Assembly: GCA_965214095.1 (NCBI GenBank)
Contig: OZ243938.1
Span: forward strand, 4,096,001-4,160,000
Direction: 5' to 3'
Source of the DNA: Candidatus Poribacteria bacterium
GTDB taxonomy: Bacteria; Poribacteria; WGA-4E; WGA-3G
DNA length: 64,000 bases
The position numbers were made by a program, and so were the translations under genes. Positions 61,073-63,128 of the stretch are shown here, one piece after another (the first letter of the stretch is position 1; every line of letters starts with the position of its first letter). The notes under the pieces were generated by a model. It saw nothing but the letters and a program-made list of their open reading frames with translations. It was not told the DNA's origin and ran no database searches.

Positions 61073-61819
61073 GTGCGGCTCGAAAAATATATCTCTGATT
61101 CAGGTGTCGCATCCCGACGTGCAGTTAAGCGTTCCATTCATGATGGACTTGTTACTGTTAACGGTATAACAATAACTGTTCCTGGACATCCGATTGATGC
61201 AGAAACTGATGATATTGAATATCGTGGAGATAAGGTTGAACCAATAACAGAGCATATCTATCTTATGTTGAATAAACCACCCGGTTATTTGACAACCCGT
61301 CATGATGAACGTGACAGACCTACCGTCATGGATTTGCTAACCGACCTACCTAAGTCAATATACCCCGTTGGACGTTTAGATTTAGATACGGAAGGATTAC
61401 TGTTATTTACAAACGATGGAAATTTTGCATATCGGATGATGCATCCCAGTCATGAGGTAGAAAAAACCTATCTTGTATGGGTTAATGGTATTCCGAGTAA
61501 TCGTGGCATTGAACGTCTACGAAACGGTGTTGCTATCACCGGCGGTAAAACTGCACCTGCCAAGATTGAAGAACTGGAGGTTACTGCTACATCTGTATTG
61601 TCCAAAAATAGAAAAAGAGGTAATACTGCAGGAGTTGCAAAATATAGAGTAGTAATTCACGAAGGCAAAAAGCGACAAGTTCGTTTAATGTTTAAAGCGG
61701 TAGGACATAAGGTAATCCGTTTGAAACGGATACAGGTAGGAACGTTAGTGTTAGGTAATCTTCCACAGGGGAAGTATCGTTTTCTCACCCCTGCAGAAGT
61801 CACCTTGTTACATCCTTGA
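61073..61819 (+). CDS. RsuA/RluB-family pseudouridine synthase
   Basis: S4 domain, NKPPG, VGRLDLDTEGLL, EGKKRQVR. Confidence 0.92.
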   Translation: MRLEKYISDSGVASRRAVKRSIHDGLVTVNGITITVPGHPIDAETDDIEYRGDKVEPITEHIYLMLNKPPGYLTTRHDERDRPTVMDLLTDLPKSIYPVGRLDLDTEGLLLFTNDGNFAYRMMHPSHEVEKTYLVWVNGIPSNRGIERLRNGVAITGGKTAPAKIEELEVTATSVLSKNRKRGNTAGVAKYRVVIHEGKKRQVRLMFKAVGHKVIRLKRIQVGTLVLGNLPQGKYRFLTPAEVTLLHP

Positions 61820-61830
61820 TTTCTGAAATC

Positions 61831-62877
61831 TTACTGATCCTTCGGAGTTGCCTCTAAGGAATCCTGAGCGCGTTTCAACATCATCTCAGTTTGCCGTAGC
61901 AGATTTTCATTTTTCCCGTGATTAAGCAACTTCTCAAACACAACAATTGCCTTATCAAACTGCTTAAGGATATGATATGTAATTCCCAAATAGTATTGAG
62001 CAGGTTCAGACTCATTGCTTTCTGGATAATTTTCAATGACTTTTTGGAAGTGCATTACAGCTTTTTCTCCCAACTTTTCGTCACTCGGTGTTCGCTGTAG
62101 CTGCGTCGCATAAGCAACACCAATTTGTGTATGCAACTTAGTTACATTCCCTGATTCATTTTTCGTATCTTTTGCAAATACTTTTTCACTGAATGGGAGT
62201 GCTTTGTCAAGTTGTTGAATCTTCAAATATGCTAAAGCAAATTGACTGTTTAGTTCAAGATCATCTGGGAGTTTTTCACTGATTGGAAGGGCTTTTTCAA
62301 ATTGTTGACGATTTATATAGAGAATACCAATTTCTCGATTAAGTTTGAGGTCTTCAGGATTCTTCTTGTATTCCGCCAATTTTGCCTTGAATTCCATCTC
62401 TTTCTTGAGTGCCGTTTCCATTACTGGAGCGAATTTATCAGGAGGAAGATATCCTGATTGATTCGTAATTACCCCTCCATCTGGACTAACGAACACAATT
62501 GCTGGGAAACCTCTAACGCCATACTTTTCTCGTGTTTCCTCGTTTATGGGACGTTCCTCAATCTCTGGATTAACTTTGATGTTGATGAATTTATCTGAAA
62601 GTGAGATGACTTTCGCATCGGTGAAGGTGTCGGCATCCAGCCGTTTACACCAACCTCACCAATCTGTATAGAAGTCCATCATAATCGGTTTACCAGTCTC
62701 GGTGGATTGTTTTGTAGCTTCTTCTACTGTATCCACCCATTGGATTTGTGCTTCACTGGCTTCTTCGGTGGTAGTTTCATGATTATCAGCAAATACAGGG
62801 ATTGAAACTGCCATCAGTAATAGAGCAGTGAGTGCAGCAAAGTAACTGAAATGTTTTGGTACAACAGAATTAAACAT
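61831..62877 (-). CDS. Predicted selenoprotein: exported thioredoxin-fold (W-U-G-W-C) + TPR protein, 348 aa
   Basis: ORF 62656-62877 ends DFYTDW-TGA; the same frame continues GWCKRLDADTF...YGVRGFPAIVFV into ORF 61831-62496; hairpin directly after UGA. Confidence 0.8.
62620..62655 (-). promoter_or_regulatory. Putative bacterial SECIS hairpin
   Basis: After UGA: GGTGT-AAA-CGGC-TGGAT-GCCG-ACACC, G-containing apical loop. Confidence 0.6.
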
Positions 62878-63128
62878 TAATTCTCTCCTAATTTTAATTT
62901 ACAATTAATATGTGGGTTCTGCTAAATCCACAATATATAAACCCATTCCTATAAAGTCGTATATCTTTTTGTACTTTCATAAGTATAGCAGCTATTATGA
63001 CGTCTGTCCAGAAAAATGATAAATTTGTGATTCCAGACCATTTGTAAGTTTTGCACACACCATGAATTATTATAGGTTGCAATTGCTTACTAAATTTATA
63101 CAGAAAACGATATTTTGTTCAGTATTGT

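Follow-up and report, generated by a model that had tools for sequence, protein, structure and literature searches.

Is a frame that is interrupted by a TGA within its thioredoxin active site a decayed gene, two separate genes, or one gene in which the TGA is read as selenocysteine (Sec)? This question is raised by the minus strand of positions 61831 to 62877 in a 64,000-nucleotide (nt) stretch of Candidatus Poribacteria bacterium DNA (NCBI GenBank assembly GCA_965214095.1, contig OZ243938.1, positions 4,096,001 to 4,160,000), the whole of which is referred to as the window. Here, we describe a computational analysis of this locus, of its relatives and of its source genome. Judged from sequence, the locus is very probably a single intact gene that encodes a periplasmic (exported) Candidatus Poribacteria selenoprotein, with a DsbD-gamma/DsbH-like thioredoxin domain followed by a tetratricopeptide repeat (TPR) solenoid, and it is close to certain that the TGA at codon 74 is a real Sec codon.

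Reading of the open frames in the window places the gene on the minus strand from an ATG at 62877-62875 to a TAA at 61833-61831, with a TGA at 62658-62656 as the sole interruption. The frame holds 348 codons in total, 274 of these after the TGA, and is otherwise free of stops and frameshifts. The TGA is codon 74 and stands in the context DFYTDW-TGA-GWCKRL, which gives the motif W-U-G-W-C. The parts of the gene on which the argument turns are these:

61831..62877, minus strand: whole predicted selenoprotein gene, 348 codons plus TAA, from the frame reading; M1 is invariant in a 32-row alignment (A3)
62788..62877, minus strand: predicted signal peptide, residues 1-30, with predicted cleavage after VFA, from hydropathy and the same layout in orthologues
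62413..62742, minus strand: thioredoxin-fold domain, residues 46-155, DsbD-gamma/DsbH-like, from Pfam, PDB sequence matches and Foldseek
62656..62658, minus strand: TGA, predicted selenocysteine codon 74, at the N-terminal (attacking) position of U-G-W-C, from column conservation
62647..62649, minus strand: Cys77, the resolving cysteine of UxxC, invariant in A3
62617..62663, minus strand: hairpin resembling a selenocysteine insertion sequence (SECIS), with the UGA included in its lower stem and an apical CGGC-UGGAU-GCCG at 62631-62643, 12 nt after the UGA, from folding and conservation
62503..62505, minus strand: Pro125 in the G-F-P loop (G123-F124-P125), the cis-Pro position of thioredoxin folds, invariant in A3 and preceding strand 126-130 in the predicted structure
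61849..62400, minus strand: all-helical TPR-type solenoid, residues 160-343, about ten helices, from Pfam and from model helices H146-172 to H324-343 at a predicted local distance difference test score (pLDDT) of about 95

The initial annotation of this locus, made from the letters alone, had put the TGA at the first Cys position of a thioredoxin WCxxC site, and this placement is borne out by homologues that have Cys there. It had also described a frame open for about 275 codons beyond the TGA, with a GFP loop and TPR repeats, and an N-terminal signal peptide; the codon count, the G123-F124-P125 loop, the Pfam TPR matches on residues 271-323 and the hydropathy of the N-terminus all agree with this description. 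The N-terminus is built like a Sec-type signal (here in the sense of export), with K8, a hydrophobic core at residues 10-21 (mean Kyte-Doolittle >1.7), VFA and then an acidic stretch; it appears in the AlphaFold model as a low-confidence helix over residues 6-28, and its opening MxNSV is kept among orthologues.

Domain searches find the thioredoxin part on both sides of the TGA. Pfam profiles match across it over residues 40-152, with Thioredoxin_2 (PF13098) at 56.7 bits against a cut-off of 27, Thioredoxin_7 (PF13899) at 49.6 bits and Thioredox_DsbH (PF03190) at 47.5 bits, the UxxC motif being U-G-W-C; the TPR matches farther on are to TPR_1, TPR_2, TPR_6, TPR_17 and TPR_19. An AlphaFold2 model built from the 32-row alignment (pLDDT 91, predicted template modelling score 0.78) has a thioredoxin fold that spans the UGA, with strands 65-69, 98-102, 126-130 and 136-141 and with Sec where helix 75-84 begins. 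Sequence comparison with solved structures ranks a Bacteroides putative disulfide isomerase (2kuc; E 2e-22) and DsbD-gamma (E ~1e-16) as the closest domains. Foldseek places the thioredoxin domain on DsbH and DsbD-gamma with template modelling (TM) scores of 0.69-0.78, and on DsbD-gamma alone with 0.73-0.78 and a root-mean-square deviation (rmsd) of ~2.6 A. In the NCBIfam DsbD model, it is the gamma region that matches, at E 1.5e-17. No curated NCBIfam model is matched above its cut-off: the best is the selenoprotein TsoB (76.1 bits vs 805), DsbH reaches 49.5 bits vs 190 and DsbD 63 vs 330, trx7_PDZ_seleno scores 26.3 vs 300, and the VPGUxxT types score 14-15 vs 275-350. Between the thioredoxin domain and the C-terminal TPRs (window 62100-62400, residues ~160-260), a repeat of about 30 residues (PDDxxLN...EKALxISEKM) varies in number among orthologues (loci L026-L041), from two units in the window copy to four in L028 and L039, and the differences in repeat number give orthologue lengths of 298-402 residues.

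The TGA is conserved among relatives. Of 41 related genomes searched in six frames, 39 have an orthologue with a single TGA, and two (G019 and G033) gave only DsbD-like matches. The TGA lies at the same column in all 30 loci that were fetched and is followed by G-[W/Y/F/A]-C, one locus having P-A-C. A scan of the phylum matched 156 of 176 genomes at E<=1e-25, in families f1-f4 and f9 and in none of f5-f8, f10 and f11; among the matches listed, every row that extends over residue 74 contains a single TGA, accompanied in one row by a TAG. A second, independent collection gave 79 loci, with TGA at the site in 71 and TGC in 8 (a tally from which spurious motif matches were removed and in which one locus, L089, was counted by eye). 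All 65 records titled Poribacteria in this collection have the TGA. Outside the phylum it is found in one Chthonomonadaceae, one Phycisphaerales and one Fimbriimonas record (L120, L123 and L129, respectively), alongside Cys forms of the same phyla. The TGC loci (L119, L121, L122, L124, L125, L126, L128 and L130) come from Armatimonadota/Chthonomonadales, Planctomycetales, Omnitrophica, Spirochaetes and an uncultured bacterium, and the database proteins P0098, P0100, P0101 and P0035 also have Cys at the site. TGA in Poribacteria together with TGC in other phyla makes the Sec/Cys pairing that is typical of selenoprotein families.

Both sides of the TGA are under constraint. Pairwise ratios of nonsynonymous to synonymous substitution (dN/dS) against six orthologues are 0.08-0.21 downstream of the TGA and 0.12-0.52 upstream; since these are low on both sides, both parts are translated and constrained. 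An alignment of homologues had been suggested at the outset as a check, with Cys in all relatives and a decaying 3' part as the outcome that would speak against a selenoprotein; the alignments gave a conserved TGA, with Cys in the remaining eight loci, and a downstream part held at low dN/dS.

Additional copies were seen in the course of these searches. P0035 (375 residues, 43% identical) has W-C-D-T-C at the site and an insertion near its C-terminus, and may be a Cys-form paralogue. A second paralogue, with open frames of 412-453 residues and one TGA at the site, occurs in several genomes of the same genus, G013, G012, G015, G004, G016, G018, G104 and G096, and G015 carries two paralogous copies about 1.7 kb apart.

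The source genome encodes the machinery that a Sec codon requires. Profile searches of the assembly (5.25 Mb, 4 contigs, 94.5% complete) found selA (616 bits), selB (355), selD (361) and tRNA-Sec (78), all above curated cut-offs, so that each of the four genes that the initial annotation had asked for is present. ARAGORN reports a tRNA-SeC(tca) with anticodon TCA, and the tRNA-Sec(UCA) gene lies about 150 nt after selB (L003/L013, G000:C1:4987445-4989585). The selD gene is itself a selenoprotein gene, with an in-frame TGA in its N-terminal motif CAGUASK (L011 ~1480-2490, G000:C1:1272212-1273138).

A bacterial SECIS is described as a stem-loop that directly follows the UGA on its 3' side and has a small, G-containing apical loop (PMC1088965), and the hairpin in the window has both the stem-loop and the small G-containing apical loop. 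Its lower stem pairs G-UGA-G with UUCAC, and the loop UGGAU begins 19 nt from the U of the UGA. Folding of a 76-nt stretch gives -27.7 kcal/mol (z -3.42; 0 of 200 shuffles as stable), and folding of the 60 nt starting 6 nt before the UGA gives -23.0 kcal/mol (z -3.13; 1 of 200 shuffles as stable). In the codon alignment of 30 genomes, three consecutive residues, R79 (CGG), L80 (CTG) and D81 (GAT), are each encoded by a single codon in 30/30 genomes; these are the only three single-codon columns among 31 invariant degenerate columns, the other invariant residues using 2-5 codons. The following residue, A82, is GCC in 29 of the 30 genomes, and the exception, GCT, keeps a G-U pair. In the wider collection, the core CGGCTGGA[T/C]GC[C/T] is found in 67 of the counted TGA loci. 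Pair counts show the apical helix paired in 100% of cells, the lower helix in 84% and the middle helix in 76%. Among sequencing runs, many short contigs of other organisms match only the ~85 nt around the UGA and hairpin (62614-62700), with 4-12 differences; this limited extent fits an unusually strong nucleotide conservation there.

The computation shows a recoding signature, a domain make-up and conservation across an order. From these the product is probably a thiol-disulfide oxidoreductase, and we infer this exported role because of the domain type and the established chemistry of thioredoxins. In the mechanism we propose, SelB and tRNA-Sec would decode the UGA of codon 74 as selenocysteine, guided by a hairpin that lies within the coding sequence, begins at the UGA and carries, 12 nt downstream, a small apical loop with a G. 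The protein would consist of a cleavable signal peptide, a thioredoxin domain with W-U-G-W-C and a C-terminal TPR solenoid. Sec74 would be the attacking nucleophile and, by reacting with an exported client's oxidised cysteine, whether disulfide or sulfenic acid, would form a mixed selenenylsulfide; Cys77 would resolve it, and the membrane electron transporter DsbD would re-reduce the resulting Se-S bond. The TPR domain would keep hold of the client, or of a partner, much like that of the cytoplasmic chaperedoxin CnoX/YbbN. We offer a reductase that is fed by DsbD and binds clients through its TPR domain as a tentative model, to which we give a little short of an even chance. The source genome does encode a full-length, three-domain DsbD of 621 residues with a gamma site of WCAAC (L051:850-2715). 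The DsbD gene is directly followed by a TPR-rich open reading frame (ORF) that runs off the locus (L051:2725-3639; both within G000:C1 ~1009479-1012268).

A bolder extension of the model, which we consider improbable, is that of a periplasmic selenium 'chaperedoxin', an envelope counterpart of CnoX whose TPR domain would bind exported proteins that are unfolded or damaged by oxidation while Sec74 rescues their cysteines. Poribacteria would depend on it as a main thiol-redox guard of the envelope, in a lineage of which the source genome gives no match to DsbA, DsbB or VKOR. Were it true, the fitness of the symbiont in its sponge would be tied to the supply of selenium.

Several results weigh against the account given so far, for the hairpin, for the Sec reading of the site or for the mechanism. 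Compensatory covariation in the hairpin is almost absent, with one pair changed on both sides, which is no better than in shuffles, and the RNAalifold covariation term for the hairpin is -0.21. The amino-acid constraint on R-L-D-A partly explains the conservation of the apex. An Rfam scan of 61800-62900 at E<=10 returned chance-level matches only and no SECIS family. The three out-of-phylum TGA homologues give hairpin z values of -0.73, -2.11 and +0.32, none clearly significant in the same place. The presence of selA in 5/5 out-of-phylum genomes tested, with Sec and Cys forms alike, means that its co-occurrence with the gene does not discriminate between the two. As to the mechanism, the gene neighbourhood offers no redox context, holding housekeeping genes only, and DsbD is so widespread (DsbD_TM in 31/31 relatives) that its co-occurrence says little.

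The hairpin that the initial annotation had placed directly after the UGA therefore stands in part: it is stable (z -3.4 and -3.1) and its apex is frozen at synonymous sites, while no compensatory covariation accompanies it. With no compensatory support, the case for the hairpin rests on synonymous-site conservation; what supports it is conservation at the nucleotide level beyond the needs of the protein, not covariation. Use of the hairpin as a Sec/Cys discriminator outside Poribacteria was dropped, as same-place folding of the eight Cys forms gives z values of -0.54 to +0.87 and the ranges of the TGA and Cys forms do not separate cleanly.

Three readings would deny that the locus is a single selenoprotein gene. 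A UGA read other than as Sec, by near-cognate Trp/Cys suppression or under a reassigned code, could appeal to the few full-length database records of relatives, which show W at the Sec column, e.g. TEW-W-GWCKRL (P0034, P0032, P0042, P0060, P0061 and P0007). The simplest explanation is that genes on short contigs were called with a code in which TGA means Trp. TGA closes 8 of the 38 ATG-initiated ORFs of at least 250 residues in the window and so is otherwise a normal stop, and the orthologue frame L022 has a second in-frame TGA where the window gene stops. The genome moreover has a complete Sec machinery, the site aligns with Cys and not with Trp in distant homologues, and suppression would need no conserved hairpin; we regard this reading as very unlikely. 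Scarcely credible, in turn, are two genes, one for an exported peptide of 73 residues that stops at the TGA and one for a TPR protein from an internal start such as GTG 62496. These are the pieces that ordinary ORF calling does yield (73 and 221 residues), and the closest public proteins, Candidatus Poribacteria entries named "hypothetical" or TPR, are of 196-285 residues and cover only the part after the TGA, just as the initial annotation had expected standard pipelines to split the gene. Yet the thioredoxin fold spans the TGA, so the 73-residue piece would end within an active-site motif; codons 75-127, which lie before the first listed downstream start (GTG 62496), hold many conserved or invariant columns within the stretch of dN/dS 0.08-0.21; and the column keeps its TGA throughout an order. 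Formally, a stop within the frame disrupts a gene, but a pseudogene, or a sequencing error at the TGA, has a negligible probability given the same TGA in 30/30 and 71/79 independently assembled loci, no further stops or frameshifts and the low downstream dN/dS. One contig from a DNA run also matches the gene along its full extent without a difference, but this assembly may derive from it. The pseudogene, two-gene and alternative-code readings were accordingly rejected on the conserved TGA, the constrained downstream part, the fold across the TGA and the Sec machinery.

A different kind of alternative accepts the selenoprotein and disputes its role: the product could oxidise or isomerise exported proteins, or could use Sec to scavenge peroxide or hypohalous acid, and its TPR domain would then have a part in assembly or localisation. 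We hold this to be somewhat unlikely, with evidence on both sides. Pfam DSBA, DsbB, VKOR and Thioredoxin_4 have no match in the 94.5%-complete source genome, and DSBA matches occur in only 13/31 relatives, mostly weak and partial; a conventional oxidative folding pathway is thus not evident. No operon partner points to a reductive route, and Sec enzymes are often peroxidase-like. Against this, the thioredoxin domain is closest to DsbD-gamma and DsbH of the reductive pathway, no re-oxidising partner was found, and DsbD occurs in all 31 relatives. The DsbD-fed reductase remains our preferred, if tentative, reading of the gene's function.

The surroundings of the gene include two upstream elements:

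62885..62889, minus strand: Shine-Dalgarno-like AGGAG, 7 nt before the ATG, read directly from the sequence
62982..63010, minus strand: promoter-like site TGGACA-17-TATACT, its -10 preceded by TG, some 105 nt ahead of the ATG, a consensus match only; such consensus sites number 7 in the region vs 5.3 expected

The neighbouring genes are mnmE (upstream, on the same strand), a convergent pseudouridine synthase, a HAD hydrolase, pdxJ and glutamate dehydrogenase. Two metatranscriptomic runs from one study yielded contigs of 1066 nt (61833-62849) and 952 nt (61903-62849) from a close relative, differing from the window by 78 and 61 letters, respectively; each bridges the TGA site, the letters at 62656-62658 being unread. 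These contigs are a weak hint of expression, as RNA libraries may contain DNA and the contigs reveal no strand, ends or level.

The gene leaves the understanding of Sec decoding and of thioredoxin chemistry unchanged. It suggests, from its sequence, that sponge-associated Poribacteria use selenium in envelope redox chemistry, and a curated model for it would correct well over a hundred public records.

Among known systems, the DsbD gamma domain and DsbH (PDB 1vrs, 2fwe, 1uc7, 2ju5) match residues ~40-155 best, in structure as in sequence. They share with the window protein a periplasmic location (predicted here) and a CxxC-type site at the N-terminus of a helix; they differ in having Cys rather than Sec and no TPR domain, and DsbD-gamma is tethered to a membrane domain. 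CnoX/YbbN (PDB 3qou and 3qdn, E. coli and its Salmonella homologue) is the top whole-chain Foldseek match (E 5e-8) and likewise has an N-terminal thioredoxin fold followed by TPR, which offers a functional analogy as a redox-active holder of client proteins. CnoX is, however, cytoplasmic and without Sec, and its global superposition is poor (TM 0.25-0.30, rmsd ~21 A). The window protein has a predicted signal peptide and, unlike CnoX, a thioredoxin domain of DsbD-gamma type, and the CnoX-type TPR_20 (PF14561) reaches 16.5 bits in it, below the cut-off of 25. TsoB (NF045694), a rhodanese/DsbD fusion-like protein and the best NCBIfam match (E 1.5e-21), is also a selenoprotein and matches through its C-terminal DsbD-gamma-like domain, but only the last 125 of 572 profile positions are matched, its Sec motif is UxxxxU and its architecture is another.

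No description of a thioredoxin-TPR selenoprotein or of this Poribacteria protein was found in the literature, although supplements may list it; the available portions of two selenoprotein catalogues carry no mention of TPR or tetratricopeptide, and one of the two, a review, has none of Poribacteria, a word for which it alone was searched. Thioredoxin-fold UxxC selenoproteins are a long-known class in the tables of these sources (PMC2398784 Table 2; PMC13188914 table), whose catalogued members include a "thiol:disulfide interchange protein" family, PF13098/cd02953. With that family the Poribacteria protein shares a PF13098 match above cut-off, Sec as the first residue of UxxC, Cys homologues, a bacterial-type hairpin after the UGA and, to judge from the NCBIfam, PDB and Foldseek matches to DsbD-gamma, probably a DsbD-gamma-like (cd02953) sequence, and to it adds a signal peptide, a TPR solenoid of ~190 residues and a Poribacteria-wide distribution. 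The gene is a conserved, exported, TPR-fused addition to the well-known thioredoxin-fold UxxC selenoproteins.

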